Notes: a model not told the origin generated them from the sequence alone. A DNA stretch of 64,000 nucleotides from Xylanibacter ruminicola (GCA_015060625.1 SUYC01000005.1:41270-105269); one strand, 5' to 3'; counted from the first letter of the stretch, positions 9,096 to 45,148 are shown. Translations and numbers: made by a program.

Positions 9096-9096
9096 C

Positions 9097-17968: not shown

Positions 17969-18281
17969 TAATCAAATCTTGAATGCTATAAGAGACAAGG
18001 CTAGTCAGATTGTGCCAAAGGGTACTACAGTTATTCTCTTTGGCTCAAGAGCACGTGGTGATGCTCGTGAAGATTCTGATTGGGATGTGCTTATCCTGCT
18101 TGATAAAGATCACATAACCTCTCAGGATATTGATGATTATTCTTGTCCATTACGCGAATTGGGTTGGGACTATAATCAGTGCATTAATGCGATCTTATAT
18201 ACAAAACGTGATTGGGATAGCAGTATTATCAGTCCTTTCCGCGAAAACGTAACTGAAGATGGAATAATATTATTGGGTTAA
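17961..18281 (+). CDS. Minimal nucleotidyltransferase (MNT) domain protein
   Basis: ILFGSRARGDAREDSDWDVLILL. A GTG start overlaps the abiEii stop. Confidence 0.85.
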   Translation: MINNQILNAIRDKASQIVPKGTTVILFGSRARGDAREDSDWDVLILLDKDHITSQDIDDYSCPLRELGWDYNQCINAILYTKRDWDSSIISPFRENVTEDGIILLG

Positions 18282-18333
18282 GTGGCTAAAAACTACACTT
18301 TTCAAACGATAAACTACACTTTTAAAATTGTGG

Positions 18334-18424
18334 CGTTATTATGTAAAATATCGCGTTCTGAAACGTTATTTCTTGTAAAATATCGTATTCTGATGCTATG
18401 TTTTTATGTAAAATATCGCGTTTT
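18334..18424. repeat. Three degenerate 32-33 bp tandem units with core TGTAAAATATCG
   Basis: Cores at 18342, 18374 and 18407, ending just upstream of TATCTTTG (18439-18446). Confidence 0.75.
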
Positions 18425-18485
18425 ACGTTTTTTCTTCGTATCTTTGTACCCAAAATAGGTTTCATAGATTGATAAATCAAGGAAC

Positions 18486-19733: not shown

Positions 19734-19741
19734 AATCTGAG

Positions 19742-20332
19742 ATGGAAAAGATATTCAGAGAAACTGAGCGATTTGAGTCCGACTTCTATATTGGAGACTA
19801 TACGCGATATTCAGAGAGTTATCCGACTTGCGGAAAGACGGGTGTTGTAATGTCAAACATGCCGTTTGCAGATATCAAAACACTTCATTTCGAAAACAAA
19901 CAGCATATACCTGTATTGGCTGTCAACTTTGAGAAGAATTTGAGCTATTTTAGGGGCAATGATCACGAACTTGTTTCGAATTGTGAATGTATGCTTGTTT
20001 CAGACAAGGCTCGTAAGAAGGGGTGGCTGGTGTTGGCAGAGTTGAAATATTGTGGTGGAGATCCAAGAACGGTGAATGATAATTTTGAGAAAGCTCTTTC
20101 ACAGGTAAAGGACACTTTTCTATATTTGAGAGATATAAAACACTTGTTTGGTGAGTCCGACTACCGGTATATATGGGTTGTTTCTCTTCCAGAGCATGAC
20201 GAAATGATACCATTCAGCCAGTTCTATCCATCACCCGAACGTATTCTGACTTACAAAGAGCAGCTTCATGTTAACCTGATATGTTCGAATACAATTGAGA
20301 TTCGCACTCATCAACATGTAAAGGTAGAGTAA
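19742..20332 (+). CDS. Hypothetical protein, putative PD-(D/E)xK-like nuclease partner of the ATPase
   Basis: CECMLV...LVLAELKY...KALSQVKDT pattern. Starts 8 nt after the ATPase stop. Confidence 0.6.
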   Translation: MEKIFRETERFESDFYIGDYTRYSESYPTCGKTGVVMSNMPFADIKTLHFENKQHIPVLAVNFEKNLSYFRGNDHELVSNCECMLVSDKARKKGWLVLAELKYCGGDPRTVNDNFEKALSQVKDTFLYLRDIKHLFGESDYRYIWVVSLPEHDEMIPFSQFYPSPERILTYKEQLHVNLICSNTIEIRTHQHVKVE

Positions 20333-20385
20333 AAATCTTAATCATAGATAACAATAAAACCTTACATACTCTTATTCTTAGTTAA

Positions 20386-20547
20386 AGTACGTCGGGGAAC
20401 GACAACAACGGTGGCAGTGGTGGTGATACGCAGAACTTCCCATCGGTTGGCGACACCTATCAAGGATGCCACGTGCTGGCCGTGACGGTGGAAGATGATG
20501 GGCAGTCGGCTGAGTTGGGGCTGCTCGCCCCCAGCCGCGCGGCATAA
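20386..20547 (+). pseudogene. Possible start-less 3' remnant of a surface-protein gene
   Basis: Open frame STSGNDNNGGSGGDTQNFPSVGDTYQGCHVLAVTVEDDGQSAELGLL..., preceded by an in-frame stop and GC-richer than its flanks. Confidence 0.25.
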
Positions 20548-20556
20548 CCCCGCGGT
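20527..20556. repeat. GC-rich REP-like hairpin element, copy 2
   Basis: GCCCCCAGCCGCGCGGCATAACCCCGCGGT, same orientation as 16196-16224 with one extra A. Confidence 0.8.
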
Positions 20557-20570
20557 GTTTTAGCATGGTA

Positions 20571-20708
20571 TTAGATATGTTCAATAATGTCGCGGTTGAA
20601 ACTACGGAGTGATTTCAACTCGCCAACAAACTCATCGTCTGTCATACCATCATCACCCCAGATGCCATAATATTTCTTAGCTGATATACGCTTAGGAGTT
20701 GTAACCAT
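20571..20708 (-). CDS. Small antitoxin-like protein MVTTPKRISAKKYYGIWGDDGMTDDEFVGELKSLRSFNRDIIEHI
   Basis: 45 aa directly downstream of a TATCTTTG promoter. The GIW..D..D.EF..EL...R pattern resembles small antitoxins found before PIN toxins. Confidence 0.4.
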   Translation of the reverse strand: MVTTPKRISAKKYYGIWGDDGMTDDEFVGELKSLRSFNRDIIEHI

Positions 20709-20725
20709 AACTTTACTATTTTTGC

Positions 20726-20764
20726 TGCAAAGATAGGATATATCTTTGAAACTTGCAAGTTTTT
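20726..20764 (-). promoter_or_regulatory. Promoter with palindrome AAACTTGCAAGTTT, duplicated at 21970-22008
   Basis: TGCAAAGATAGGATATATCTTTGAAACTTGCAAGTTTTT versus TGCAAAGATAGAATATATTTTTGAAACTTGCAAGCTTTT (3 mismatches). Confidence 0.75.
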
Positions 20765-20897
20765 GGTTCACTTCTTTTTGTAAAGAAGGTGAACAACTCA
20801 AGAAAGCACTAGCACTATTTGGGCTTACAAATTAAGTAAGCTACCCATAAATGTTGCAAAGGAATTGCATTTGCCTGATGCCATTAGATTAGAGAAA

Positions 20898-21947
20898 TCA
20901 TCCTTTGTGAGTATTGACATGATTGGTGATAAAGTTAGAAGAAAGGATATCATAATTGCTAAGACCCGTGCGAGCAAACTTAGCAAACAGTTCCTGGTGG
21001 GTTTGGCTATTAAGACTGGTAACCACGCTACCCGTACGTTGAAGGATATTCCACAAATCCAAATCAACCGTATCAAGTAGGAAACTATCATTCGAAGTTA
21101 CTATCAGCTGTATCGACTTGGCCTTACAATAGGAGAACACTATCTTACCCAACTTTGTAGATCGGCGATAGTCCAAACCTTCGCCCATATCATCAATCAT
21201 CAGGCAGCGGGCTCCCTTCAGTGTTGAGCTGTATATCATATAGAGCAATACACTGAACACACGGAACATTCCGTTTGAGAGTTCGTAGAACTCCATCGGC
21301 TTCTCGATGCCTGTTTCGTATATCAACAGCCACTTACCACCAGAAGCATTCTCAACTACCTCAATCTTGTCAATCTGGTAGCCAAGCTCCTTAATATACT
21401 CTATCAATACGTTTTGCTGATTCTTTATCTGCTCATACATCTCAGGGATAAGAGGCTCGGTAGAGAGTATATAAGGACTTAACGACTTTAACGAAGCCGT
21501 GATATTACTAAACACATAAAGCGAAGTATGCTCAGCCCATAAAATAATCTCCTCGATTTCTGGATAACGCATGGTATCTCTACGAGCCTGTATTAACAGC
21601 TTGTTTGCAGGTGGATTTACCGATTCACCATACATCTCGGCGGTAGATGCATTTCTGACAATCTTAGACTGTCCATCAATCAAGAGACTTTCTGACTTGA
21701 TTAATCCGTCAGACAGCTCGAATGCATATTCAATCTGATGGCTATTTGACAATCTAAGCACACAAGAGAAATCCTTTTTGGCCAATTCTGAGTCGTTCTT
21801 AATAAAGCGAATGACATTACCCAAGGCCTCTAAAGTCCTTGACTTACCTACAGAATTCATACCAACAATAAGGTTCTGGTGATGAAGTGTAAGCTTTTCC
21901 AGTTGCCAACCGGAAGATTCTCTATATGAAAATTCTGTCAGAATCAT
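20898..21947 (-). CDS. ABC-type (AAA_21-like) ATPase, start MILTEF at 21947
   Basis: Walker A VGMNSVGKSR, signature ELSNGMFR, Walker B LMIDDMGEGLD, and IVTSND at the H-loop position. Confidence 0.85.
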   Translation of the reverse strand: MILTEFSYRESSGWQLEKLTLHHQNLIVGMNSVGKSRTLEALGNVIRFIKNDSELAKKDFSCVLRLSNSHQIEYAFELSDGLIKSESLLIDGQSKIVRNASTAEMYGESVNPPANKLLIQARRDTMRYPEIEEIILWAEHTSLYVFSNITASLKSLSPYILSTEPLIPEMYEQIKNQQNVLIEYIKELGYQIDKIEVVENASGGKWLLIYETGIEKPMEFYELSNGMFRVFSVLLYMIYSSTLKGARCLMIDDMGEGLDYRRSTKLGKIVFSYCKAKSIQLIVTSNDSFLLDTVDLDLWNILQRTGSVVTSLNSQTHQELFAKFARTGLSNYDILSSNFITNHVNTHKG

Positions 21948-22051
21948 AATGTATATACTATTATTCGCATGCAAAGATAGAATATATTTTTGAAACTTGC
22001 AAGCTTTTTGAAAAGAAGATGAACAAAAATTAGATGTTAATTTGCATTTTA

Positions 22052-22464: not shown

Positions 22465-23157
22465 ATGGATGCATTGATTAATGCTAACAAGGCAACATCA
22501 CCAATAACCCGCTGTGGACTTACCTCCATGGCCATCCCCGAAGCTATAGATGCACAAAAAGGGGCGTCGGTAGAATACGCTCCTGACCCTGATAAGCGCT
22601 GGTATGTGCTCCGTGCCTCCTATGGTCGTGAGATATTAGCCGAACAGCTACTCATCCAGAGCCATGTCTATGCCTACGTTCCCAAACGCTATACCTATAT
22701 CGAGGTGAAGGGCCGCCCCAAAAAGGTGTTGCAATGCCTCATTGCCAATATCGTGTTTGCCTATCTCACACCCAAGCAAGCTATGATGTTCGTTCGTAAT
22801 AACGATCCTGATGAGCCATCGCCAGCCCCGCAATTGTCAGAATTTATTAGCTTCTACTATAATCATTTTGTCGAGGGTGAAAACTGGCGAAATCCGCCGC
22901 TTACTATCCCTGAGCACGAGATGCTCAACTTTATTTGTGCCACCTGCTCGAACGACGAGAATCTGCTGATGCTCCAGGGAGGCGACTTTCATTACAAAAC
23001 CGACGATGAAGTCGAGGTTATCTGTGGTCAGTTCAAAGGTGTTCGTGGTCGAGTCATCCGAGCCCGCGGTCAGCAACGAGTGCTTGTCGCTCTTACCGCC
23101 CTCAATTGCTTCTGTGCCACCGCTTATATTCCGACCCCGTTCCTCCAAAAAATATAA
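22465..23157 (+). CDS. upxY: UpxY-family (NusG-like) transcription antiterminator
   Basis: NGN domain WYVLRASYGRE...YVPKRY...LIANIVFAY and KOW EVEVICGQFKGVRGRVIR. First gene of a polysaccharide locus. Confidence 0.88.
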   Translation: MDALINANKATSPITRCGLTSMAIPEAIDAQKGASVEYAPDPDKRWYVLRASYGREILAEQLLIQSHVYAYVPKRYTYIEVKGRPKKVLQCLIANIVFAYLTPKQAMMFVRNNDPDEPSPAPQLSEFISFYYNHFVEGENWRNPPLTIPEHEMLNFICATCSNDENLLMLQGGDFHYKTDDEVEVICGQFKGVRGRVIRARGQQRVLVALTALNCFCATAYIPTPFLQKI

Positions 23158-23171
23158 CTCCCAAAATACCG

Positions 23172-23227
23172 TGAGTTAATTCAAAACGTCTAATGAGTTA
23201 ATTCATTGCCCCTTTTGAATTAATTCA
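23172..23227. repeat. Three palindromic TGA(G/A)TTAATTCA sites at a 22-bp period
   Basis: Copies at 23172, 23194 and 23216. Confidence 0.75.
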
Positions 23228-23256
23228 CCGCACTTCGAGGCCTCTCGATTACGATG

Positions 23257-23338: not shown

Positions 23339-23438
23339 AATATCCTCATCCCTTCTTAACCCCCTCTCTATATAGCCCCCATCCTCTCTCTAAAGAGAGG
23401 TGGGGCTATAGTAAGAGGGGTGTAAGGGATAGGGATAT
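23339..23438. repeat. Long imperfect hairpin with ~45-50 bp arms
   Basis: ATATCC...CCCCTCT...TATAGCCCC...CCTCTC / GAGAGG.TGGGGCTATA...AGAGGGG...GGATAT. Confidence 0.7.
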
Positions 23439-23708: not shown

Positions 23709-24965
23709 ATGGAAAGAAGAAAAGATAGAATCCTTCTATGCCTGTGCCATCTTTCTGGCAACGAGCAGAAGTTTGTAAACGAAGCATTTGATACCAACTG
23801 GGTTGTGCCCCTTGGCCCTAATGTAAATGGATTCGAGAAAGACCTCGAAGAGTTCGTTGGTCAAAATAAGAGGGTGGTAGCCCTCTCTGCTGGAACAGCA
23901 GCTGTGCATCTTGCATTGCTGAACTGTGGTGTAGGACCTGGTGATGAAGTGCTGGTACAGAGCTTTACGTTCTGCGCATCTAGCCACCCTATTACATATC
24001 TTGGTGCAACGCCTGTTTTCATTGATTCTGAGAAAGAGACATGGAACATGGATCCAGAGTTGTTGGAGAAGGCTATTATCGACCGTAAGGAGAAAACAGG
24101 TAAGTACCCCAAGGCTATCGTGCCGGTAGCACTCTACGGTATGCCGTACAAGATTGACCAGATTATGGCTATCGCCAACAAGTATGGCATTCCTGTGGTA
24201 GAGGATGCTGCTGAGGGCTTTGGCTCTAAGTTCAACGGTCAGGTGCTGGGTACATTTGGTAAATATGGTGTATTAAGCTTTAACGGTAACAAGATGATTA
24301 CTACCTCTGGCGGTGGTGCATTGATTACTGAGAACGAGGACGAGTGGCGAGAGATTATGATGTATGCCACTCAGTACCGTGAAAGCTATCCGTACTACCA
24401 GCACGAGAAGATTGGCTATAACTACCGTATGAGTAATATCTGTGCAGGTATTGGTCGTGGTCAGATGACCATATTAGATGAGCATATTGCCCATCACAAG
24501 AAGGTACAGAAGATGTACGAAGAGCTGCTGAAGGACGTGAAGGGTGTTACCGTACATAGCCAGCCTGAAACAGGAGAGTACGACTCTAACTACTGGCTTT
24601 GCACCATGACCATTAATCCTGACGTGAAGGTTAAGGGGCAGGAGAATGCGTATAAGCAGATTGTTACAGGTGCCGTAGGAGGTGCTGCTGGTGTGATTCA
24701 TGCTGCAGATTCAGCAACAACAGACTGTCAGCCTAATGATAATGTGGAGGCCATGCGTATGGGCTTGGATGCCCTGAATATTGAGAGCCGCCCACTTTGG
24801 AAGCCTATGCATAAGCAGCCTGTTTATAAGAATGCACCTGCATATGTAAATGGTGTCAGCGAAGACCTGTTCAAGATAGGTATGTGCTTACCTGCAGGCC
24901 CATATGTTACAGAGGATGACGTGCATTTCATCTGTGATGCTATCAAGAGTTTGATTAACGAATAA
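23709..24965 (+). CDS. DegT/DnrJ/EryC1/StrS (PglE-like) NDP-4-keto-6-deoxy-sugar aminotransferase
   Basis: EAFDTNWVVPLGPNVNGFE, SAGTAAVHLAL, EDAAE, PLP Lys in SFNGNKMITTSGGG, GYNYRMSN, ESRPLWKPMH. Confidence 0.92.
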   Translation: MERRKDRILLCLCHLSGNEQKFVNEAFDTNWVVPLGPNVNGFEKDLEEFVGQNKRVVALSAGTAAVHLALLNCGVGPGDEVLVQSFTFCASSHPITYLGATPVFIDSEKETWNMDPELLEKAIIDRKEKTGKYPKAIVPVALYGMPYKIDQIMAIANKYGIPVVEDAAEGFGSKFNGQVLGTFGKYGVLSFNGNKMITTSGGGALITENEDEWREIMMYATQYRESYPYYQHEKIGYNYRMSNICAGIGRGQMTILDEHIAHHKKVQKMYEELLKDVKGVTVHSQPETGEYDSNYWLCTMTINPDVKVKGQENAYKQIVTGAVGGAAGVIHAADSATTDCQPNDNVEAMRMGLDALNIESRPLWKPMHKQPVYKNAPAYVNGVSEDLFKIGMCLPAGPYVTEDDVHFICDAIKSLINE

Positions 24966-24983
24966 AAAACGCTGTAATTGGCT

Positions 24984-26077
24984 GTGAATAAGAAAAATCC
25001 CCCCCCCATTTAAGGGTTGAAAGGCAGTCCAACTTTGAGGCTTTAAGACTGCTCTCCATGCTGATGGTACTTAATCTCCATAGTTTTTGGGGATTTAACT
25101 ATGGCAGTGGTATTTGGCAGGCTCTTGACTTCTTTAGGGAAAGCACTTCTATCTGTGCCGTAGACTGTTTCATATTGATTTCAGGCTATTTTTGCATCAA
25201 GTGGAAGTTCCGCAGTTTCTTCAATCTCATATTTCAGATTTTCTTCTATAGCGTAGGGCTCTATCTCGTTGTAGTCGGCCTTGGAATTGTTGATTGGAGC
25301 TTAAAAGAATTCATCATCAGGTTCGGATGTCTGTTTACAAGATCGTGGGGCTTTGCCATCACGTTTGTCCTACTTTACTTCTGTTCACCTGTGCTGAATG
25401 CTTTTGCAGATAGGTCATCGTCTCGTGAGTTGCTTCTATACATTATTGTATTTTTCATAGTCATCAATTTCGTGAGTATTCCTCGTTTCGACCTGTTTAC
25501 CTATGCACTGGTTTACCTCGTCGGTCGATGGTTGAGAAAAATGAATGTAGCAGATCTGAAGTTTCCTTCTGGAAAGGCATATTGGATAGTGACAGTTTTG
25601 ATATTTGTTATCGTCTATGTCCTTTGCTTTTGCGTGTTGCATTTTACGAAGTCTAACGTTCTCAAATGGCCTTTTGGTATCATTGGCTATAATTATGCGG
25701 CACCGTTGGTTATACTACAGGCAGTATCCCTTTTTATGTTCTTTGCACGACTGAGGTTCAAAAGTAACTTTATCAACTGGTGTGCAGCATCAAGTTTTGC
25801 AATCTATCTCATTCACATGCATCCGACCATCAAACAAATAGGATATTATGCATTTACTAAGTCTTTATATGAACAGCCTCCCTTTCTGCATGTTGTTGCT
25901 CTCGTTGCATTTATCTTAGCAGTGTTTTTCGCTTGTATATTCATAGATAAAATCAGAATAGCAATATCTAATGTATGCTTTCTTATGGTAGAATCATTAC
26001 TGAAGCATGTACCAGTAAAAATATTTAAGATAGAAACCTATTTGCCATCATCTATGGCAGTATTGATTTCAAAATAA
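24984..26077 (+). CDS. Acyltransferase family 3 (OafA-like) membrane O-acyltransferase, frameshifted at the C9 tract; intact frame runs 24992-26077
   Basis: The conserved family start ERQSNFEALRLLSMLMVLNLH lies upstream of the first in-frame ATG (25058). Also VDCFILISGYF and SSFAIYLIH. Confidence 0.8.
24999..25007 (+). repeat. C9 homopolymer that separates the acyltransferase start codon from its reading frame
   Basis: GTG AAT AAG AAA AAT C9 ATT TAA stops at 25013. C10 or C7 would read through into RQSNFEALRLLSM. Confidence 0.8.
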
Positions 26078-26078
26078 T

Positions 26079-26714
26079 ATGAAGAATCTAATCCTTATAG
26101 GTGGTGGTGGTCACTGCAAGTCCGTTATGGATGCAGCTGAGAGTGCGGGTTACAGTATTTTTGGAGTGCTGGATGTAGCGGAGAATGTTGGCAAGGAAGT
26201 ACTCTCAACCAAGATTATAGGCACAGATGAAAACATTCCTGCTTACGTTGATAAGGCAGAGTTTGTTATCACTGTTGGTTTCATCAAGAATCCTGCAGTT
26301 CGTATCAAGCTATACAATAAGGTAAAGGAAGCTGGAGGAAAGTTCGCTACAATCATAGCTTCTACTGCATACGTTTCTAAATATGCAGAAATAGGCGAAG
26401 GTACGGTCGTTCTCCATCAGGCATTTGTGAATGCTGGTGCTAGGGTTGGTAAGAATGTCATATTGAATACTGCAACCAACATTGAGCATGATGCAGTTAT
26501 TGGCAATCACTGCCATATTTCTACAGGAACTATGGTAAATGGCGAGTGCAAGGTCGGCGAACGCTGCTTTATTGGAAGTCAGTCCGTTCTCGCCAACTGC
26601 ATTTCTGTTGGAGATGATATTATTGTGGGAGCTGGTTCTTTTGTCAGAAAGACAATTTCTGAAAAAGGTATCTACTCAGGTAATCCTGCTATTCTAAAAA
26701 TTAGGGCAAAATGA
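26079..26714 (+). CDS. neuD: NeuD/PglD-family sugar acetyltransferase
   Basis: LILIGGGGHCKSV, hexapeptide repeats, NTATNIEHD..IG.HCHISTG. Confidence 0.85.
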   Translation: MKNLILIGGGGHCKSVMDAAESAGYSIFGVLDVAENVGKEVLSTKIIGTDENIPAYVDKAEFVITVGFIKNPAVRIKLYNKVKEAGGKFATIIASTAYVSKYAEIGEGTVVLHQAFVNAGARVGKNVILNTATNIEHDAVIGNHCHISTGTMVNGECKVGERCFIGSQSVLANCISVGDDIIVGAGSFVRKTISEKGIYSGNPAILKIRAK

Positions 26715-27721
26715 AACATACAATCATCATAGCAGAGGCTGGCGTGAACCATAATGGTTCCATTGAGCTGGCAAAGCAGCTGGTAGATAAAGCCGTTGAA
26801 GCAGGTGTGGACTTTATCAAATTCCAGACCTTTAAGGCTGCAAAGCTTGTCACTAAGACTGCAAAGCAGGCAGAATATCAGCAGAAGAACATTGGTAAAG
26901 AAGGTGATAGTCAGTACCAGATGTTGAAGAAGTTGGAGCTTTCACCTGAAGACCATGAGTTATTGATTGCTTACTGCAAAGAGAAAGGCATTAAGTTCTT
27001 CTCTACGGCCTTTGACTTTGATAGCATTGAGTATTTGCATTCATTGAATCTGGGCTTGTGGAAGATTCCTTCAGGAGAAGTAACCAACTATCCTTTCTTG
27101 AAGCGTGTGGCTGCCTATAATGAAAAGACCATCCTCAGTACAGGTATGTGTGATATGGTTGATGTTCGTGCAGCTGTAGAGGCTTTATACAAGAATGGTT
27201 TATCAAAGGAGAACCTGATTCTGCTTCATTGCAATACCGAGTATCCTACGCCTTTTGAGGATGTAAACCTTAAAGCAATGGAGGCACTCCGTGAAGAATT
27301 TGGTGTAGAGGTGGGTTATAGCGACCATACAAAAGGTATTGAAGTACCCATTGCTGCTGTAGCTTTAGGTGCAACTGTCATTGAGAAGCATTTCACCCTT
27401 GACCGTAACATGGAAGGACCTGACCATAAAGCCAGCCTTGAACCTGATGAATTGAAAGCGATGGTCTCAGCCATCCGCAACATTGAGAAGGCTGTGGGTG
27501 GCGACGGTACTAAGCACGTGAGTGAAAGTGAACGAAAAAATATCGCCATTGCCCGCAAGAGCATTGTGGCTGCTTGCGATATCAAAGCTGGCGAAACCTT
27601 TACGGAAGAGAACCTGACTGTAAAGCGTCCTGGTAGCGGTATCTCTCCCATGCGTTGGGAAGAGATAGTTGGCCAGAAAGCCAAGAAAGATTTCAATGAA
27701 GACGAGTTGATTGAGCTATGA
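26711..27721 (+). CDS. neuB: Nonulosonate synthase, NeuB/LegI type
   Basis: IIAEAGVNHNGS, KFQTF, KIPSGEVTN, LLHCNTEYPTP, GYSDHT, IEKHFTLD..GPDH.ASLEP, C-terminal SAF domain. Confidence 0.95.
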   Translation: MKHTIIIAEAGVNHNGSIELAKQLVDKAVEAGVDFIKFQTFKAAKLVTKTAKQAEYQQKNIGKEGDSQYQMLKKLELSPEDHELLIAYCKEKGIKFFSTAFDFDSIEYLHSLNLGLWKIPSGEVTNYPFLKRVAAYNEKTILSTGMCDMVDVRAAVEALYKNGLSKENLILLHCNTEYPTPFEDVNLKAMEALREEFGVEVGYSDHTKGIEVPIAAVALGATVIEKHFTLDRNMEGPDHKASLEPDELKAMVSAIRNIEKAVGGDGTKHVSESERKNIAIARKSIVAACDIKAGETFTEENLTVKRPGSGISPMRWEEIVGQKAKKDFNEDELIEL

Positions 27722-28878
27722 GAAAGATTTGTGTAGTAACAGGTACTCGTGCAGAGTATGGCTTGCTGAGCAGGCTGATGGGGATGATTAAGGATTCTGA
27801 CCAGACGCAGTTGCAGGTCATTGTTACTAATATGCACCTAAGTCAAAAATATGGCAATACTTACCAAGAAATAGAGAAAGATGGTTTTACCATTGACTGC
27901 AAGATCCCTATTATAGATCAGAACGCTGAGGACAATGCTGTAACAACGGTAAAGTCAATGGCAACAGCCCTTTCTGGATTTGCTGAAGCATACAATACGT
28001 TGAAACCGGATTTGGTGGTAGTACTTGGTGACCGTTATGAGATACTTGCTGCCGCAACAGCTGCATTGATTGAGCGTATTCCCATAGCTCATCTGCATGG
28101 CGGTGAAGTGACAGAAGGGGCTTACGATGATGCTATTCGTCATAGCATTACCAAGATGAGCCACTTGCATTTCACTTCTACGGAAGAGTATAGAAACCGT
28201 GTGATTCAATTGGGTGAGCAGCCTGATAGAGTATTCTATGTGGGAGCTCCTGGGGTGGAGAATATCAAGAAGTTCCCGCTGATGAGTAAGGAAGAAGTTG
28301 AGGAATCGGTCAACTTCAAGTTGGATGAAAACACTATTTTGGTGACTTATCATCCAGTGACCTTGGGTGACCATACCGCAGGAAAGGACATCAAAGAGTT
28401 TCTAGGTGCGTTAGAAGAGCGCAAGGATTTGCGTGTGTTCTTTACTATGCCCAACTCTGATACAGGTTCTCAAGCTATTGTGGATGCCATCAATGAATTT
28501 GTGGCAAACAACTCAGACAGAGCCATTGCTTATAAGTCGCTTGGAATTAAGCGTTATCTCTCTGTGATGAAATATGCAGGAGCTGTCGTTGGCAATTCTT
28601 CCAGTGGTTTGCTGGAAGTACCTTCTTTTGGCATTCCCACATTGAATATTGGTGATCGCCAAAAGGGTAGGATGGCTGCTGATAGTGTCTATAACTGTGA
28701 GACTGATAAAGAGTCTATCCTGAAAGGTTTGGATGTGATTTTGTCACCAGCTTTTAAAAAGAAAGCGGCAGAAACGCATAATCCTTACGAGAAAGCAAAT
28801 ACAGCAGAAGAGATATTCAAGGTGATTAGCACCTATCCTTTGGAGGAATTAAAACAGAAACATTTCTACGATTTATGA
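27718..28878 (+). CDS. neuC: Hydrolysing NDP-GlcNAc/Bac 2-epimerase, NeuC/LegG type
   Basis: VVTGTRAEYGLL, LGDRYE, HLHGGE, DDAIRHSITKMSHLHF, VTYHPVT, GNSSSG, NIGDRQKGR. Confidence 0.95.
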   Translation: MRKICVVTGTRAEYGLLSRLMGMIKDSDQTQLQVIVTNMHLSQKYGNTYQEIEKDGFTIDCKIPIIDQNAEDNAVTTVKSMATALSGFAEAYNTLKPDLVVVLGDRYEILAAATAALIERIPIAHLHGGEVTEGAYDDAIRHSITKMSHLHFTSTEEYRNRVIQLGEQPDRVFYVGAPGVENIKKFPLMSKEEVEESVNFKLDENTILVTYHPVTLGDHTAGKDIKEFLGALEERKDLRVFFTMPNSDTGSQAIVDAINEFVANNSDRAIAYKSLGIKRYLSVMKYAGAVVGNSSSGLLEVPSFGIPTLNIGDRQKGRMAADSVYNCETDKESILKGLDVILSPAFKKKAAETHNPYEKANTAEEIFKVISTYPLEELKQKHFYDL

Positions 28879-29852
28879 AAATAATAGTTATTGGACTCGG
28901 CTCAATGGGTAAGCGCAGAATACGCCTACTGAGTGAGAATCAAGATATAGAGCTCTTTGGTATAGATAGCCAGGAGAGCCGTTGTGCGGAAGTGAAGGAG
29001 AAGTTTGGCCTGAAATGCTATGCTAGCATTGCTGAGGCTGTTGCAGCAGAACGACCCGATGCTGCTGTGATTAGTACATCTCCTCTTTCTCATTCTTCTA
29101 TCATCAAAGAATGCTTGCAGAACAACCTCCACGTATTCACAGAGATTAATCTGGTGGCAGATGGCTATGCAGAGAATATGGCATTGGCCAAGGAAAAAGG
29201 GAAAGTGCTGTTCCTTTCTTCAACGTTCCTGTATCGTAAAGAGACTCAGACCATCATTGAGAAGGCAAACAAGGCAACCTGCCCTCTGAACTATATCTAT
29301 CATATTGGTCAGTACCTGCCTGACTGGCATCCATGGGAGAGTTACAATAACTATTTTATTGGTAATCCCAGAACCAATGGTTGTCGTGAGATTATGGCCA
29401 TTGACCTGCCTTGGATAGTTACTGCCTTTGGACCTATCAAGAGTGTAAGTGCGGTAAAGAGCAAGAACACTCAGCTAAACATTAACTACAACGATAACTA
29501 CTTGATTACCATTGAACATGAGAATGGTAACAAGGGAGTTTTGGCTGCTGATGTGGTAACTCGTAAGTCCATCCGTCATATTGATGTATATGGTGAATCA
29601 TTCCAGATGTCTTGGAATGGTACAGCAGACTCTTTGCAGGAGTATAATGTTGAGACCAAGGAAATGCAGGCTATCCAGTTTGATGATGCTTCAGAACATG
29701 TGGAAGGTTATGCTGCATTTGTTACGGAAAATCCTTATCGCGAGGAACTGAATGCTTTCTTGGCTCAGATTGCCAACCCAAAGGCCGTTCCAGCTTGGAC
29801 TTTTGAGAAGGACTTTGAGTTGCTGAAGGTTATTGATCAGATTGAAGCATAA
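28875..29852 (+). CDS. Gfo/Idh/MocA-family oxidoreductase
   Basis: VIGLGSMGKRR, HVFTE, GQYLPDWHPWE. Confidence 0.88.
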   Translation: MKIIVIGLGSMGKRRIRLLSENQDIELFGIDSQESRCAEVKEKFGLKCYASIAEAVAAERPDAAVISTSPLSHSSIIKECLQNNLHVFTEINLVADGYAENMALAKEKGKVLFLSSTFLYRKETQTIIEKANKATCPLNYIYHIGQYLPDWHPWESYNNYFIGNPRTNGCREIMAIDLPWIVTAFGPIKSVSAVKSKNTQLNINYNDNYLITIEHENGNKGVLAADVVTRKSIRHIDVYGESFQMSWNGTADSLQEYNVETKEMQAIQFDDASEHVEGYAAFVTENPYREELNAFLAQIANPKAVPAWTFEKDFELLKVIDQIEA

Positions 29853-30802
29853 TGAAGAAATATAAGATAGCTTTTGTAGGACTTGGCTCCATTGCAACAC
29901 GTCACCTAAAGAATGTGCATGCTTATTTGGCATCACAGGGTGATTGTTGCGAGGTGGACTTATACCGCAGTTCTCTAGGTAGACCGTTGGCAGATGAGTT
30001 GCAGCCATTGGTAAGTAACGCTTACTTGTATGCTGATGAGATACCTGCAGACCGCCAGTATGATGTGGTTTTCGTAACCAATCCTACATCAATGCACTAT
30101 GAAACGGTTGAGCGGTTTGCTGCACATACCAAATCATTCTTCATAGAAAAGCCGGTATTTGACAGTTCGAAGGTTGACGAGAAGATATTTGATACCATCA
30201 AGGATATTCCTTCATACGTTGCCTGTCCGCTTCACTATAATGCCGTTCTGCAATATGTAAAGCAGCATGTGAATCCTGAAAATGTGATTTGTGCCAGAGC
30301 TATGTCTTCTAGTTATTTGCCTGACTGGAGACCTGGACAAGACTATCGCAATACCTATAGCGCTCATAAGAATTTGGGAGGTGGAGTAAGTATTGATCTC
30401 ATTCATGAATGGGATTATCTTACTTGGCTCTTTGGGATGCCTGCGGAATGCCACTCCATGATTAACAAGGTTTCCAATTTGGAAATTGATAGCGATGATT
30501 TGGCCATCTATATTGGCAAAAATGATAAGACAACCTTTGAACTTCATTTGGACTACTTTGGAAGACAAACACAACGTACGCTTGATCTGTTTACGGCAGA
30601 TGACACCATCCATTGTGATTTGATAGCTGGTACAGTAAGCTATTTGAAGAAAGGAGAAACCATTAAGCTGGAAAGTGAGCGTAATGCCTTCCAGATGGCT
30701 GAGATTGCACATTTCTTTGGGATAATAAACAATAAAACAATAAACGACAGCAACCCTGAACATGCTTACCAGGTGCTGAAAATAGCAAAAGGAGAATTCT
30801 AA
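29852..30802 (+). CDS. Gfo/Idh/MocA-family oxidoreductase
   Basis: FVGLGSIATRH, FFIEKP, SYLPDWRPGQDYR, GGGVSIDLIHEWDY. Confidence 0.9.
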   Translation: MKKYKIAFVGLGSIATRHLKNVHAYLASQGDCCEVDLYRSSLGRPLADELQPLVSNAYLYADEIPADRQYDVVFVTNPTSMHYETVERFAAHTKSFFIEKPVFDSSKVDEKIFDTIKDIPSYVACPLHYNAVLQYVKQHVNPENVICARAMSSSYLPDWRPGQDYRNTYSAHKNLGGGVSIDLIHEWDYLTWLFGMPAECHSMINKVSNLEIDSDDLAIYIGKNDKTTFELHLDYFGRQTQRTLDLFTADDTIHCDLIAGTVSYLKKGETIKLESERNAFQMAEIAHFFGIINNKTINDSNPEHAYQVLKIAKGEF

Positions 30803-30803
30803 T

Positions 30804-31574
30804 ATGAACATTCTGTTTACATTATGTGGTCGTGCGGGCTCCAAGGGAGTAAAAGGCAAGAATGCCCGAGACTTTCTGGATGTACCCCTAGTTTGGTATT
30901 CTATGGCCAACATTGCTCTGTATATGGAAAAATATGCAGGCGAGGATGATATCAAAATCGTGTTGAATACTGATAGCGAGCCATTGAAAGATTTGGTTAG
31001 ACGTGTAAAGGATGTGCCTGTAACTATCATCCATCGTGAAGAGAGTCTGGCTGGAGATAAGGTACCCAAGGTGGCTGTAATTCTGGATTCTCTGAACAAG
31101 GCAGAAGAGATTTTCGCTCAGAAGTTTGATATGGTGGTTGATTTGGATATAACTTCACCTTTACGTACCGTTCAGGATGTGAAGAATGCCATTGACCGCA
31201 AGAAGCAGAGAAATGATGTGGATGTGGTTTACAGTGTAGCACCATCCCGAAGAAATCCATATTTTAATATGGTAAAAGAGGATAACGGTTTCTTCTGTAA
31301 GGCCATTCCTTCCAACTTCACCACTCGTCAGGAAGCACCTGTATTCTATGACATGAACGCTTCTATCTATGCTTATTCACCTGACGCTTTAAGGAATAAG
31401 GAACATGCTACTTTCTTTAACTCTGGATGTGATGCTGTGGTAATGGCAGATACCGGTATTCTCGATATTGATTCAGAGGAAGATTATGAATTAATGCAGG
31501 TTATAGCTAAGTATCTGTTTGAGAATAATGAAGCGTTTAAAGAAACGTTTAACAAGGCTATAGGATGGAAATGA
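30804..31574 (+). CDS. neuA: Acylneuraminate (nonulosonate) cytidylyltransferase
   Basis: CGRAGSKGVKGKN, LDITSPLR, RQEAP..YDMNASIY, DIDSEED. Confidence 0.88.
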   Translation: MNILFTLCGRAGSKGVKGKNARDFLDVPLVWYSMANIALYMEKYAGEDDIKIVLNTDSEPLKDLVRRVKDVPVTIIHREESLAGDKVPKVAVILDSLNKAEEIFAQKFDMVVDLDITSPLRTVQDVKNAIDRKKQRNDVDVVYSVAPSRRNPYFNMVKEDNGFFCKAIPSNFTTRQEAPVFYDMNASIYAYSPDALRNKEHATFFNSGCDAVVMADTGILDIDSEEDYELMQVIAKYLFENNEAFKETFNKAIGWK

Positions 31575-32605
31575 AGAATCATATCATATCTCAGAATATA
31601 ACATTACTTGATGCGCTTGTACGTATCAACAGTCTAGCCCCAGACCCATTGGTGCTTTTTGTGGTGGATGGCGAACAGCGCATGGTGGGAACGCTTACCG
31701 ATGGCGATTCGCGTCGTGCCTTAATTGCTGGCGCATCCGTCAGTGACAAGGCCGAGCAGATAATGCACCGAGATTTTAATTATATGCGTGCTGATGACGC
31801 AACGGATGTGCTTGAAATCCGTCGGCAGAAAGAGATAAAGATGAAATTGGTTCCTATCCTTGATGAGGAACACCACATTGTGGACATTATTAATCTGGAG
31901 AAGTTCAAGACACGTCTGCCTGTTGATGCTGTAATGATGGCTGGCGGTAAAGGAGAACGTTTGCGTCCATTGACCGAGAAGACTCCAAAGCCATTGCTAC
32001 CTGTTGGTGACAAGGCAATTATCGACCATAATGTGGATCGATTAATTTCATACGGTATTAACCACATTAGTGTGACTGTTAACTATCTGAAGGAACAGAT
32101 AGAGGAACATTATCAGGAACCAAGAAATGGCGTTCAGATACATACGGTACGCGAACCAAAGTTCCTTGGTACAATAGGCAGCATTCGTTTCGTTCCTGAG
32201 TTCTATAACGATACTGTACTGGTGATGAACAGCGATGTGTTTACGAACATTGACTATGAGGACTTTTTCCTCCACTACCAGCAACACGATGCTGAAATGT
32301 CTGTGGCAGCTATCCCTTACAACGTAGCTATTCCATATGGCATCTTTGATCTTGATGGACGTAATATCAAGGGACTGATTGAAAAACCCAAATACAACTA
32401 CTATGCCAATGCTGGCATCTATCTTATTAAGCGCCGCGCACTCGATGAAATTCCTGAAGATACCATGTTCCATGCTACAGATCTGGTGGAAAAGCTCATA
32501 TCTCAAGGAAAAACCGTTATTCGTTATCCACTGAATGGTACTTGGATAGATATAGGCAATCCTCAGGAATACCAGAAGGCGAAAGACTTGGTGAAACATT
32601 TATAA
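31571..32605 (+). CDS. CBS-domain nucleotidyltransferase (PtmE-like sugar-1-phosphate guanylyltransferase)
   Basis: N-terminal CBS pair (GTLTDGDSRR) plus MAGGKGERLRPLTEKTPKPLL, LGTIGS, MNSD, WIDIG. Confidence 0.85.
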   Translation: MKNHIISQNITLLDALVRINSLAPDPLVLFVVDGEQRMVGTLTDGDSRRALIAGASVSDKAEQIMHRDFNYMRADDATDVLEIRRQKEIKMKLVPILDEEHHIVDIINLEKFKTRLPVDAVMMAGGKGERLRPLTEKTPKPLLPVGDKAIIDHNVDRLISYGINHISVTVNYLKEQIEEHYQEPRNGVQIHTVREPKFLGTIGSIRFVPEFYNDTVLVMNSDVFTNIDYEDFFLHYQQHDAEMSVAAIPYNVAIPYGIFDLDGRNIKGLIEKPKYNYYANAGIYLIKRRALDEIPEDTMFHATDLVEKLISQGKTVIRYPLNGTWIDIGNPQEYQKAKDLVKHL

Positions 32606-32676
32606 TTGGTGTATAACGCAGAGTGTCTTTTTGTGAGATATTTTGTTTCAGTTTAATATTTATAAACAGTTTATTT

Positions 32677-33627
32677 ATGGAATTAATTAACAAAGTTAGA
32701 TTTATTCTTAGGGGAACATTGAATGCATATAGGACATATTCAATCCTTAATAATAAAGACAAAGAAATAAGTAGACATGAGGGTGAGATAATAAGGTATA
32801 CACATTCATTAGAAAAAGGTCTTTCTTTAGAAGATATTAGACCCTTTTTTGGCTTTGCGAAAATAACAGAAGGTTATTCGCATGTAAAAAAATACCTTGC
32901 TTTAGGAGGTGATAGTGAAAGGCCAACAATGTTCGTGTCAGCGCTCAAACAATATCTTGAATATCATGATAGCAGAAAACTTGCGTCTGAGAACTTGGAA
33001 ATAGTTCGTAAGATATTCGATGAACTGAGTGAACTGGTTATACCTACTTCAGGAACAGGTGGAATACTGACAATAAAGAAACCGATTTATTCGGAAGAGG
33101 AACAAAAATGTTTTGAGAAATTGTTTAACGACCGCCATAGCGTCCGTGAATTTTCCCATACCCCAATAGATCAGGAGAATTTGCATGAGGCAATAGAGTT
33201 GGCAATGCGTTGTCCCAGTGCGTGTAACCGTCAGTGTTATCGTTGTTACACACTGTCTAAGAATTCCTTAAAGGCATTAGGTGACTTATCGGGAATTGGA
33301 GGGTTTGCAAATGATGCGGAACAATTTTTGCTAATAACGGGTCGAATGTCCGACTACCGTTTGTCTGAGAACTTGCAATGGATAGTGACTGGTACGATTT
33401 TCGCCTCATATTTGACATTGACACTTCAGGCGAAAGGAATAGCATCGTGTTTTGTGCAAAGGCCAGTAACTCCTTCAAGGTGGATGTATAATATATGGGA
33501 TAAACTTAACATAAGTAAAGATGAACAGATGATATGTCTGCTAGCGATAGGTAATTTTAAAGATGAATATAAAGCTCCTGTTTCTCATCGTTTGTCATAC
33601 AACAAGATCGTAAAGAAATTGGATTGA
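32677..33627 (+). CDS. Nitroreductase-family protein
   Basis: RHSVREF and AMRCPSACNRQ. AT-rich. Confidence 0.8.
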   Translation: MELINKVRFILRGTLNAYRTYSILNNKDKEISRHEGEIIRYTHSLEKGLSLEDIRPFFGFAKITEGYSHVKKYLALGGDSERPTMFVSALKQYLEYHDSRKLASENLEIVRKIFDELSELVIPTSGTGGILTIKKPIYSEEEQKCFEKLFNDRHSVREFSHTPIDQENLHEAIELAMRCPSACNRQCYRCYTLSKNSLKALGDLSGIGGFANDAEQFLLITGRMSDYRLSENLQWIVTGTIFASYLTLTLQAKGIASCFVQRPVTPSRWMYNIWDKLNISKDEQMICLLAIGNFKDEYKAPVSHRLSYNKIVKKLD

Positions 33628-35159
33628 TGAAAGCCGACGCAAGGAAAAACAACAAAAGAATAGTTAAGAACGTGTTTTTTCTTTATTTCCGCATGTTCTT
33701 AATTATTTCGGTGTCTCTTTATACTTCAAGGGTTGTCCTTAATGTATTAGGAGTTACCGATTATGGTATATATAATGTAATCGGTGGCGTAGTGGCATTG
33801 ATGGGGCTCTTAAATGGCGCAATGACTTCAGCGACAAATCGTTTTTTTGCATTTGAGTTAGGAAGAAATGATGAAGTAGGGTTAAAGAGAACTTTCTCGA
33901 TGTCAATTAACATTTATCTGATAGTTGCAATATTTATTGTCATTTTGGCAGAAACTATTGGCCTTTGGTTTCTTAATACCCAATTAGTCATTCCGGCAGA
34001 TAGACTGACTGCAGCAAATTATGCTTATCAGTTTTCTGTGCTTTCATGTATAGTTGCACTTTTTACCATACCGTTTAATTCTTCAATTATAGCACATGAA
34101 GACATGAATGTGTTTGCATATATCAGTATTGTTGATGTCCTACTAAAATTGGCAGTGGTATATCTGCTTAACCTATTCTCCTTTGACAAGCTTTGCTTTT
34201 ATTCAGCGCTTCTCTTTATAGTTAGCATCTCTATAACTATAAGTTATGGCATCTATTGTTGGTGTCATTATAAAGAATGTCGATACTCATTTGATTGGGA
34301 TAAGAGTTTGTTTAGGAAATTGTTGTCATACTCAGGATGGAATCTATTTGGAGCAACAGCTGCAGTTGTTAAGACCCAAGGTCTTAATATCTTACTGAAT
34401 ATGTTTTTTTCTCCTTCAGTAAATGCATCAAGGGGAATATCAGCACAAGTGAATGCAGGTGTTAATCAGTTTAGCAATAATTTCTTTATGGCTGTTCGCC
34501 CACAGATAATTAAATATTATGCTCAGAATGACTTGGATAATATGTTTAAGCTTGTGATTCGAAGCACGAAGCTAACATCTTTTCTGTTACTGGCTCTTGC
34601 AGTTCCATTGATATTAGATACACCATACATTATCAATCTTTGGCTTGGTCAGATGCCAGAATATGTGGTCATTTTCACTCGATTGATGTTGGTAATAAGT
34701 TTTGTGGAAGGAATTGCACATCCTATTATGACTTCTTGCCATGCGACAGGTCGCGTAGCATTATATCAGTCAGTTGTAGGATTAATGTTGATATTTAATG
34801 TGCCAATTTCTTATTTCTTTTTAAAGTTTGGATTTCAGCCTCCGGTTGTATATGTTATTTCATTTATAATTGCCATTTTGGCATTTTATGCTCGTTTGTT
34901 GATATTAAAACGCTTAATTCCCACTTTTCCAGTACTGAGGTTTAATTATGAAACAGTTTTCAAAGGAATAGTGGTTTGCGCTTTTTCTGTCTTTCTTCCT
35001 GGCTGGTTTCATCATTTTCATTCTGGGACGTTCTTAGATTTTCTGATTCTTATCCTAATATATGAAACATGCCTTATTATTTCTTTTTTTATCATTGGAT
35101 TAGATAAGACAGAGAGAAACAGTATTTTTTCGTTTGTACAGAGTAAAATCCATAAGTAA
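33627..35159 (+). CDS. wzx: Wzx-type polysaccharide flippase (MOP superfamily)
   Basis: KN..FLYFRM....VSLYTSRVVLNVLGVTDYGIYNV.GG, many TMs. Confidence 0.88.
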   Translation: MKADARKNNKRIVKNVFFLYFRMFLIISVSLYTSRVVLNVLGVTDYGIYNVIGGVVALMGLLNGAMTSATNRFFAFELGRNDEVGLKRTFSMSINIYLIVAIFIVILAETIGLWFLNTQLVIPADRLTAANYAYQFSVLSCIVALFTIPFNSSIIAHEDMNVFAYISIVDVLLKLAVVYLLNLFSFDKLCFYSALLFIVSISITISYGIYCWCHYKECRYSFDWDKSLFRKLLSYSGWNLFGATAAVVKTQGLNILLNMFFSPSVNASRGISAQVNAGVNQFSNNFFMAVRPQIIKYYAQNDLDNMFKLVIRSTKLTSFLLLALAVPLILDTPYIINLWLGQMPEYVVIFTRLMLVISFVEGIAHPIMTSCHATGRVALYQSVVGLMLIFNVPISYFFLKFGFQPPVVYVISFIIAILAFYARLLILKRLIPTFPVLRFNYETVFKGIVVCAFSVFLPGWFHHFHSGTFLDFLILILIYETCLIISFFIIGLDKTERNSIFSFVQSKIHK

Positions 35160-40940: not shown

Positions 40941-40963
40941 TTTTAATTTTAAAATAGAATAAT

Positions 40964-41940: not shown

Positions 41941-41948
41941 AAAAAGAC

Positions 41949-42674: not shown

Positions 42675-42686
42675 AAAACAATAGTT

Positions 42687-43757: not shown

Positions 43758-43761
43758 GCGT

Positions 43762-45141: not shown

Positions 45142-45148
45142 AAAGAAT

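Follow-up and report, generated by a model that had tools for sequence, protein, structure and literature searches.

A conserved trio of two Gfo/Idh/MocA oxidoreductases and a cytidylyltransferase in the predicted legionaminic-type module of a Xylanibacter ruminicola capsule locus

Introduction

In many bacterial capsules, O-antigens, and flagella, the outermost positions are taken by nonulosonic acids, sugars whose recognition by antibodies, lectins, and phages changes when a single stereocentre is flipped. The present work concerns a 64,000-nucleotide (nt) stretch of DNA from Xylanibacter ruminicola (GCA_015060625.1, SUYC01000005.1:41270-105269), hereafter called the window and numbered from its first letter, and more specifically a string of seven plus-strand genes, at 26079-32605, that would encode most of a legionaminic-acid-type pathway. 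Three of these genes specify two oxidoreductases of the Gfo/Idh/MocA family (Gfo1, 28875-29852, and Gfo2, 29852-30802) and a 256-amino acid (aa) cytidylyltransferase (30804-31574). This trio is most likely a widespread and uncharacterised variant of the Ela/Ptm/Epa-type remodelling modules, in which two Gfo/Idh/MocA paralogs would replace the combination of one Gfo protein and one short-chain dehydrogenase/reductase (SDR).

The closest described systems come from Acinetobacter, in which the genes adjoining the lga module decide which epimer CMP-Leg5Ac7Ac, i.e., legionaminic acid (Leg) activated with cytidine monophosphate (CMP), becomes. In Acinetobacter baumannii KL49, the gene order is ElaA-ElaB-ElaC, for a Gfo protein, a CMP-transferase, and an SDR, respectively. 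ElaA is a 323-aa protein with K91 and H181 as catalytic residues and 3EZY as its closest Protein Data Bank (PDB) entry; it was crystallised with NADP+ only, and is proposed to oxidise C8 of CMP-Leg5Ac7Ac, with the SDR ElaC carrying out the reduction. The corresponding genes of Plesiomonas, Vibrio, and Campylobacter are arranged in the order PtmE-PtmF-LegF-PtmA, with a single Gfo gene (PMC4481668), PtmF-LegF-PtmA being the equivalent of ElaABC. Another solution to the same problem is offered by the prophage-encoded EpaA, a fusion of a CTP_transf_3 domain with an aldo-keto reductase, and the SDR EpaB, which convert Pse5Ac7Ac, a pseudaminic acid (Pse), to its 8-epimer, as shown by nuclear magnetic resonance (NMR).

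Comparison with Described Systems

The trio resembles ElaABC in that a Gfo protein with a Lys/His pair adjoins a CMP-nonulosonate synthetase, genes of the LegG, NeuB, and PtmE types lie nearby, and a second NAD(P)-dependent oxidoreductase is present. The Lys/His Gfo protein beside the cytidylyltransferase is Gfo2 (K100, H185), whose gene lies 1 nt upstream. The second oxidoreductase, however, is a lysine-less Gfo/Idh/MocA paralog here, and an SDR in ElaABC; the order is Gfo1-Gfo2-cytidylyltransferase instead of Gfo-cytidylyltransferase-SDR; and the cytidylyltransferase of the window belongs to a distinct subtype, only 26-34% identical to the LegF type. Judged by the SDR, the trio thus stands outside the Ela triad, yet by analogy it most likely works like one.

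EpaA and EpaB also combine a cytidylyltransferase function with two NAD(P)-dependent oxidoreductases, and the CTP_transf_3 fusion of EpaA parallels the CTP_transf_3/Gfo1-like fusions described below. The likeness is, nevertheless, in logic only, as these are prophage genes for aldo-keto reductase and SDR family enzymes acting on a Pse substrate, and the genes of the window are separate. The lgaABCDEF(G) genes of Acinetobacter share the core chemistry up to CMP-Leg5Ac7Ac and the principle that the epimer is set by adjoining add-on genes, but these add-ons (ela, aci) make use of SDRs, and none contains two Gfo paralogs.

Closer in taxonomy, the Leg locus of Tannerella forsythia FDC 92A2/UB4 also serves a Bacteroidota surface glycan and contains homologues of LegC, PglD-like LegH, LegG, LegI, LegF, and PtmE, although its dehydratase is of the LegB type, in place of the displaced Polysacc_synt_2 type found here. 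In the paper on this locus, no Gfo/Idh/MocA protein appears in the table of Leg candidates and neither 'oxidoreductase' nor 'dehydrogenase' occurs in the text, the unlisted genes between BFO_1067 and BFO_1073 standing outside this comparison. Lastly, the 2,7-anhydro-Neu5Ac (N-acetylneuraminic acid) oxidoreductases RgNanOx and YjhC are Gfo/Idh/MocA enzymes that act on a nonulosonate via a keto intermediate, and are detectable relatives of Gfo2. Unlike the enzymes of the trio, they are catabolic, redox-neutral single enzymes working at C4 of free sialic acid, and the homology is remote.

Gene String and Pathway Type

The seven open reading frames (ORFs) are tightly coupled, with a 4-nt overlap at each of the first three gene boundaries, 1 nt shared by the Gfo1 and Gfo2 genes (TAATG), a 1-nt spacer between Gfo2 and the cytidylyltransferase gene, and a 10-nt overlap between the latter and the last gene. 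They begin with a NeuD/PglD-type N-acetyltransferase in the LegH role (26079-26714, 211 aa; TIGR03570, 195 bits for a cutoff of 161; PglD_N and Hexapep domains), followed by a nonulosonate synthase of the NeuB/LegI type (26711-27721, 336 aa) and a hydrolysing NDP (nucleoside diphosphate)-sugar 2-epimerase of the LegG type (27718-28878, 386 aa; 486 bits with the NeuC model, TIGR03568). Next come Gfo1, a divergent Gfo/Idh/MocA oxidoreductase (325 aa; PF01408, 60 bits), Gfo2, a canonical one (316 aa; PF01408, 38 bits, and PF02894), the cytidylyltransferase, a putative CMP-nonulosonate synthetase of a Gfo2-linked subtype in the LegF/ElaB role (CTP_transf_3, 29.6 bits; PseF, 64 bits), and a PtmE-type nucleotidyltransferase with a CBS-like N-terminus and an NTP_transferase domain (31565-32605, 346 aa; PF00483, 134 bits). 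The same string of genes is found again on many metagenome contigs, with protein identities of 84-99%, and in 80 species genomes, which is far beyond chance.

Several lines of sequence evidence bear on the type of nonulosonate that is made. The epimerase matches the GDP/UDP-N,N'-diacetylbacillosamine hydrolysing 2-epimerase (PDB 5xvs/5zlr) with an E-value of 1.7e-99, versus 1e-13 for the sialic-acid enzyme SiaA (6vlb). The best solved relatives of the sugar 4-aminotransferase encoded further upstream (23709-24965, plus strand, 418 aa; DegT_DnrJ_EryC1, 299 bits), which is of the PglE/LegC type, are the Campylobacter jejuni PglE structures 1o61 and 4ztc (E 6e-85). The synthase scores 515 bits with TIGR03569 (cutoff 400) and 306 bits with the PseI model (cutoff 340), which are models that cannot tell Leg-type from Neu-type enzymes; it is 49% identical to the NeuB protein of a Rhizobium cluster in which LegB and LegC are annotated by NCBI. 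The PtmE-type protein shares 30% identity, across 342 aa, with the product of the PtmE-position gene of that cluster; its residues 122-342 match PF00483, and residues 9-115 match the C-terminal CBS part of KpsF/GutQ.

In view of the LegG-type epimerase, the PglE-like aminotransferase, the likeness of the synthase to that of a LegB/LegC-annotated cluster, and the PtmE-type transferase, the module is assigned by homology to a legionaminic-acid-type (5,7-diamino-3,5,7,9-tetradeoxynonulosonate) route, rather than to Neu5Ac or Pse synthesis. A Pse pathway was considered as well, and ruled out by PseI and PseB scores below the cutoffs and by the presence of a 2-epimerising LegG-type enzyme. The cytidylyltransferase is a weak but apparently real match to its family: its best PDB match is a CMP-NeuAc synthetase (6ifd, E 1e-15), it shares 34% identity with a LegF-type enzyme, and the GSKG..KN and DxD motifs are kept across 65 orthologs. 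A first-pass annotation, made from the sequence alone, had described a neuD-neuB-neuC-oxidoreductase-oxidoreductase-neuA-CBS/NTase string with overlapping stops and starts, a legionaminic-type pathway, and a CBS-nucleotidyltransferase of the PtmE type. This description holds, since all seven ORFs lie on the plus strand where it placed them, and their families are matched by curated models.

Conservation of the Trio

Scanning one genome per species yielded at least 585 relatives of Gfo1, the best 80 of which were examined for their neighbours; this sample is conditioned on the presence of Gfo1, and is silent on the frequency of clusters without it. Gfo2 lies directly 3' of Gfo1 in 71 of these 80 species loci, the 256-aa cytidylyltransferase follows Gfo2 directly in 53, and NeuC precedes Gfo1 in 50, while a PtmE gene adjoins the trio in only 6. 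When the analysis is restricted to the 47 fully sampled loci, i.e., those that extend for 8 kb or more to either side, NeuB is present in 45, and PtmE, within 10 kb, in 43. Because of these adjacencies, and of one genome in which the trio stands alone, the conserved unit is Gfo1-Gfo2-cytidylyltransferase, to the exclusion of PtmE. The carriers belong to Bacteroidales, Lachnospiraceae, Oscillospiraceae, Selenomonadaceae, Acetobacterium, Clostridium, Eggerthellaceae, Succinivibrio, and Aeromonadales. Named strains that have the trio include X. ruminicola D31d (L014), in which the cassette, with its Gfo1, is 91% identical to that of the window, Anaerovibrio lipolyticus DSM 3074, Acetobacterium paludosum DSM 8237, and Eubacterium multiforme DSM 20694. 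The Gfo1 family comprises 166 clusters (at 50% identity) with E-values below 1e-30, and metagenomes hold thousands of relatives of each protein, the best 120 matches being at least 80% identical for Gfo1 and at least 84% for Gfo2. A look-up of the exact Gfo1 sequence gave no record, and near-identical relatives were used in its place. The arrangement is not unusual, being the one commonly seen in Bacteroidales and in many members of the Bacillota.

The lone trio (L078:9974-12756) lies amid housekeeping genes (IlvD, a Na+/H+ exchanger), with neither NeuB nor PtmE within 10 kb, and may serve a nonulosonate that is either scavenged or synthesised elsewhere.

The cytidylyltransferase is also linked to oxidoreductase domains within single polypeptides. 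A CTP_transf_3 domain is joined to a lysine-less Gfo1-like domain, either one coming first, in fusions among the proteins P0190, P0199, P0255, P0236, P0220, and P0185, and the N-terminal domain of one fusion is 34% identical to a LegF-type enzyme. In P0185, the C-terminal half of Gfo1 appears to run into an N-terminal portion of Gfo2, which is either a real fusion or a gene-calling artefact. Among the 14 long (at least 480 aa) Gfo1-like proteins screened, none contains a match to the PtmE-type transferase of the window.

In loci without Gfo2, Gfo1 is accompanied by a LegF-type cytidylyltransferase and an SDR in L077, by an aldo-keto reductase in L065, and by a class III aminotransferase in L060. 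The SDR, the aldo-keto reductase, and the aminotransferase would all consume a keto-sugar. In L060 (10001-14015), the Gfo1-like oxidoreductase and the aminotransferase are followed by the LegF-type gene. A comparable pair, consisting of a Gfo2-like oxidoreductase and a class III aminotransferase, is found in a Halorussus archaeon (L087:6959-10209), where the gene at the cytidylyltransferase position, annotated as 'glycosyltransferase family protein', gives no match to the cytidylyltransferase hidden Markov model (HMM). The pairing of a Gfo protein with an aminotransferase suggests that a keto-nonulosonate is aminated rather than reduced, which would leave C8 or C4 with an additional amino group.

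Two cytidylyltransferases occur side by side with the oxidoreductases in L019, L021, L029, L064, and L075, a LegF-type enzyme being encoded directly 5' of Gfo1 and the Gfo2-linked subtype 3' (at about 9200-12700 in L021, L029, L064, and L075, and about 2100-5700 in L019).

Gfo2 as the Probable PtmF/ElaA Counterpart and Gfo1 in the Place of the SDR

Plasmid annotations from Rhizobium, Sulfitobacter, and a Sphingomonadaceae bacterium display the PtmE-Gfo-cytidylyltransferase-SDR order as well, with a variant in Azospirillum. With HMMs built from 81 Gfo1 and 74 Gfo2 orthologues, the PtmF-position Gfo proteins of such single-Gfo clusters score 115-176 bits on the Gfo2 model, and 18-124 bits on the Gfo1 model. 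The best PDB match of the Gfo2 family profile is 3ezy. Since the single-Gfo proteins favour the Gfo2 model, 3EZY is shared with ElaA as the best PDB match, and the Lys/His pair is kept, Gfo2 appears to be the counterpart of PtmF/ElaA, i.e., the standard single Gfo gene of PtmE-type clusters. The converse assignment of Gfo1 as the PtmF/ElaA orthologue, hinted at by the Gfo1-LegF-SDR arrangement of L077, was rejected as a general rule, all six PtmF-position proteins favouring the Gfo2 model.

As for the SDR, none is encoded in 23709-33627, as the first-pass annotation had noted for the immediate neighbourhood, and the only SDRs of the window (41194-42674) are part of a fatty-acyl-type set with a β-ketoacyl-acyl carrier protein synthase III (KAS III), an AMP-ligase, and an acyl carrier protein (ACP). 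The fully sampled loci that carry Gfo1 and Gfo2 lack an SDR altogether (0/47), whereas canonical single-Gfo clusters have one. On this basis, Gfo1 would be the additional, unusual enzyme, which occupies the role of the PtmA/ElaC SDR and adds no extra step. The count of 'two extra' oxidoreductases, thus, has to be lowered: with Gfo2 as part of the standard set, only Gfo1 would be additional, and as a replacement.

Gfo1 and Gfo2 are full-length homologues, with 23% identity (BLASTP) and an E-value of 1e-38 in profile-profile comparison, and have the YLPDW(H/R)P motif in common. In Gfo2, E99-K100-P101, G176-G178, and H185 are invariant across orthologs, and D182 is nearly so (at least 90% in alignment A2, and at least 95% among 75 Gfo2 orthologs). 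Gfo1 carries E90-I-N92 where EKP stands, plus NGCREIMAIDLPW, and has neither the catalytic lysine nor the Asp and His of the GGGxxxDxxxH motif; instead of the canonical catalytic residues, its family keeps E90, N92, and E172. About 70 positions of Gfo1 are conserved at 95% or more, among them the glycine loop for dinucleotide binding. The conserved residues include G7/G9/G12, R14, R15, D31, H73, E90-x-N92, GQYLPDWHPWE at 145-155, E172, and H215.

The AlphaFold2 (AF2) model of Gfo1, with a predicted local distance difference test (pLDDT) score of 96, displays a complete Gfo/Idh/MocA fold. When compared with the PDB using Foldseek, it is closest to GenD2, GnnA, WlbA, TM0414, and AFR, with template modelling (TM) scores of 0.75-0.82; GenD2, GnnA, and WlbA are sugar 3-dehydrogenases. 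Its domain content and predicted fold, therefore, place Gfo1 in the Gfo/Idh/MocA superfamily.

At the end of strand 2, Gfo1 has a conserved Asp31 and Gfo2 an invariant Arg39, which suggests that Gfo1 uses NAD+ and Gfo2 NADP(H). From these cofactor hints and the crystallisation of ElaA with NADP+, it may be very tentatively proposed that Gfo1 is the oxidase and Gfo2 the reductase.

Proposed Function and Alternative Explanations

By homology, the pathway would begin with the 4,6-dehydratase encoded at 50412-51620, the aminotransferase, and the NeuD-type acetyltransferase, which would together provide an NDP-2,4-diacetamido-2,4,6-trideoxyhexose. The LegG-type enzyme would then hydrolyse and 2-epimerise this NDP-sugar, NeuB would condense the product with phosphoenolpyruvate (PEP), and the 256-aa cytidylyltransferase would form the CMP-sugar, which the PF05159 transferase described below would probably add to the capsule repeat. 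Gfo1, Gfo2, and the cytidylyltransferase would constitute one functional unit, remodelling the nonulosonate around its activation step: one oxidoreductase would convert a free secondary hydroxyl (at C8, or else C4) into a ketone, which the other would reduce from the opposite face, giving CMP-8-epi- (or 4-epi-) legionaminic acid.

The free secondary hydroxyls of Leg5Ac7Ac are only at C4 and C8, and the 8-epi and 4-epi isomers of legionaminic acid are already known. These two are, for that reason, the likeliest predicted products, rather than the different isomer that the first-pass annotation had put forward for two Gfo/Idh/MocA enzymes without an adjacent SDR.

Such an oxidation and reduction, at C8 or C4 of a sugar of the legionaminic type and tied to its CMP activation in the manner of ElaABC and EpaAB, has about an even chance of being correct. 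The link to CMP activation derives from the conserved trio, the fusions with cytidylyltransferase domains, the keto-consuming partners found in the place of Gfo2, and the precedents set by EpaA/EpaB and the lga modules. That an oxidation/reduction pair remodels the nonulosonate had been proposed from the gene order, and is still the best-supported reading.

Several points weigh against it. Product chemistry has been published for no carrier of the trio, and Campylobacter, which has PtmF and PtmA, is reported, in work by McNally dating from 2007, to produce legionaminic acid as such and not its 8-epimer. Gfo1 is devoid of the canonical Lys and of the usual His, which casts some doubt on its being a conventional dehydrogenase. 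The orthology of Gfo2 with ElaA/Cj1330 would rest on synteny and proxies, ElaA being compared by its description. Finally, the simple model fails to explain the second, LegF-type cytidylyltransferase of the five loci mentioned above, in which epimerisation may take place on the free sugar, with the Gfo2-linked enzyme being specific for the epimer. Other authors, moreover, place PtmA and PtmF at the precursor steps leading through GDP-GlcNAc (guanosine diphosphate N-acetylglucosamine; PMC4481668; SugarBase preprint), and PtmE co-occurs with the trio in 43/47 loci, a co-occurrence which, on its own, cannot separate the roles.

These last points feed directly into an alternative explanation, namely that the oxidoreductases act upstream, in precursor supply, as proposed for PtmF/PtmA in the GDP-GlcNAc branch of Campylobacter, so that the sugar would be plain Leg or an N-acyl derivative. 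PtmA is assigned to the opening, GDP-GlcNAc, segment of the pathway (PMC4481668), and the SugarBase preprint groups PtmA, PtmF, PtmE, and PgmL as components of the precursor pathway. The proximity of PtmE (within 10 kb of the trio) agrees with this. The Leg that Campylobacter is reported to make with PtmF and PtmA would fit as well. Two NAD(P)-dependent oxidoreductases are, however, ill-suited to an amidotransferase/isomerase reaction, and they track the cytidylyltransferase, not PtmE, in their adjacency; fusions exist with the cytidylyltransferase domain, and none with a PtmE-type domain was seen in the long proteins screened. The lone trio does without PtmE and NeuB, and structural and genetic work in Acinetobacter assigns C8 epimerisation to ElaA/ElaC. 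Precursor supply is considered unlikely.

Another explanation, also rather improbable, is that each Gfo protein is self-contained and redox-neutral, with tightly bound NAD, and that the two act at different positions (e.g., C4 and C8), or take the 6-deoxyhexose as their substrate ahead of condensation, leading to a product altered at two centres or otherwise modified. RgNanOx and YjhC, which are Gfo/Idh/MocA enzymes, transiently oxidise C4 of sialic acid and regenerate NAD+, the Gfo2 family profile matches them with an E-value of 5e-12, and a few loci contain Gfo1 but no Gfo2. In these loci, nevertheless, the missing Gfo2 is replaced by another reductase or an aminotransferase, which a shared keto intermediate fits better, and the adjacency of Gfo1 and Gfo2 in 71/80 loci, together with their translational coupling, speaks against two independent enzymes.

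A small chance is given to a more far-reaching variant, in which the trio makes a nonulosonate undescribed from nature, such as the 4,8-di-epimer (L-glycero-D-talo) if each enzyme takes one hydroxyl, and Gfo1 represents a new, lysine-less catalytic type of Gfo/Idh/MocA enzyme. An even smaller one is left for Gfo1 as a non-catalytic paralog (pseudoenzyme) that would act as a heterodimer partner for the stability or specificity of Gfo2, the latter performing the chemistry alone: the missing EKP Lys and GGGxxxDxxxH His, and the dimeric state of Gfo/Idh/MocA proteins (ElaA structure paper), would suit it, but the glycine loop and the roughly 70 strongly conserved residues, several His, Glu, and Arg among them, the existence of Gfo1 without Gfo2 beside other keto-consuming enzymes, and the fusion of Gfo1-like domains to cytidylyltransferases all go against it.

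The trio is the common form of the legionaminic-type module in rumen and gut anaerobes, in which its oxidoreductases are annotated only as 'Gfo/Idh/MocA family oxidoreductase'; genome-based predictions of 'legionaminic acid' in these organisms may, therefore, name the wrong isomer. The design, a cytidylyltransferase and two oxidoreductases, looks modular, with interchangeable Gfo, SDR, aldo-keto reductase, and aminotransferase partners. The trio is also a natural experiment that bears on the dispute over whether PtmF/PtmA-type enzymes serve precursor supply or epimerisation.

The Capsule Locus

The UpxY antiterminator family is a marker of Bacteroidales capsule loci. The seven genes belong to such a locus, headed by a UpxY-family transcription antiterminator gene (22465-23157, plus strand; NF033644 antiterm_UpxY, 99.3 bits for a cutoff of 100, E 2e-28; Pfam NusG). 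The G+C content of the capsule locus is below that of its flanks. Sequence identical to that of the window is present in ruminant and faecal metagenomes, and Xylanibacter (Prevotella) ruminicola D31d is the closest named genome among the species-genome matches; a megablast of the segment against all complete E. coli genomes gave no match.

No 4,6-dehydratase gene lies within 26079-32605, the candidate being the NDP-HexNAc 4,6-dehydratase of the Polysacc_synt_2 type at 50412-51620 (plus strand; PF02719, 129 bits), which is neither LegB-type nor PseB (63 bits with the PseB model, for a cutoff of 408). It scores 690-793 bits against the dehydratases of 10 related Bacteroidales loci (L002, L003, L005-L008, L010-L012, L014), in which the dehydratase gene lies directly 5' of the aminotransferase gene. 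It appears, from this similarity, to be the orthologue of the first gene of the related cassettes, and the module would, therefore, be complete but rearranged. In comparison with L002:3760-4968, the dehydratase gene is shifted by some 24 kb, and lies at the 3' end of the locus.

The aminotransferase itself, which reaches 341 bits with TIGR04181 (LegC family; cutoff 420), belongs to a separate subtype, in which some 30 residues are inserted near positions 305-345. Most related loci have a true LegC-family aminotransferase (533 bits in L002), and the subtype of the window is shared with L005 (870 bits). Between the aminotransferase gene and neuD, the module is interrupted by a gene for an Acyl_transf_3 membrane O-acyltransferase (25058-26077, plus strand; PF01757, 45.8 bits), which is present in L001 and L011 too. 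A hexapeptide (serine-acetyltransferase-like) gene that stands between the cytidylyltransferase and PtmE genes in L002-L004 is missing from the window.

The seven genes are followed, on their 3' side, by those of a nitroreductase-like protein, an ORF of 511 aa (33624-35159) that matches no family, a pyruvyl transferase, Wzy, a glycosyltransferase of family 1 (GT1), and a PF05159 protein, and then, toward the end of the locus, by an N-acyl side-chain set, an initiating phosphotransferase, and the dehydratase. The PF05159 protein (Capsule_synth, Gtr59/KpsS family; 38758-40311, plus strand, 47.7 bits) is the candidate nonulosonate transferase, this family being tied to the transfer of non-2-ulosonic acids (PMC4487303). 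In related loci, its place is taken by a GT52 sialyltransferase.

The N-acyl side-chain-like set (40308-45876) consists of another PglD/NeuD-like acyltransferase and two SDRs that resemble FabG, together with KAS III and an AMP-dependent ligase; an ACP-like ORF of 79 aa (45149-45388) and a small hexapeptide transferase (45445-45876) complete it. The set probably adds a hydroxyacyl group to an amino sugar, be it the nonulosonate or the initiating sugar.

Two structured elements lie between upxY and the biosynthetic genes, namely a 36-nt imperfect palindrome immediately 3' of upxY (23164-23235), and a 25-nt stem-loop with 80% complementarity (23355-23426), in the 550-nt leader ahead of the first biosynthetic gene. 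These may be regulatory or terminator elements acted on by UpxY.

Immediately 5' of the capsule locus, a small defence island (16356-21974) comprises an AbiEi/AbiEii toxin-antitoxin pair (16356-17968; PADLOC E-values of 3e-94 and 5e-119), a PDC-M29A-like AAA ATPase (18486-19733) with a 196-aa partner that falls in no known family, and, encoded on the minus strand, an AbiL-like ATPase (20898-21974). The left flank also carries a tRNA-Tyr (GTA) gene (9013-9096). On the other side, an IS200/Y1-transposase-like ORF (52265-53041) is located just past the capsule locus, ahead of a β-galactosidase of glycoside hydrolase family 2 (GH2).

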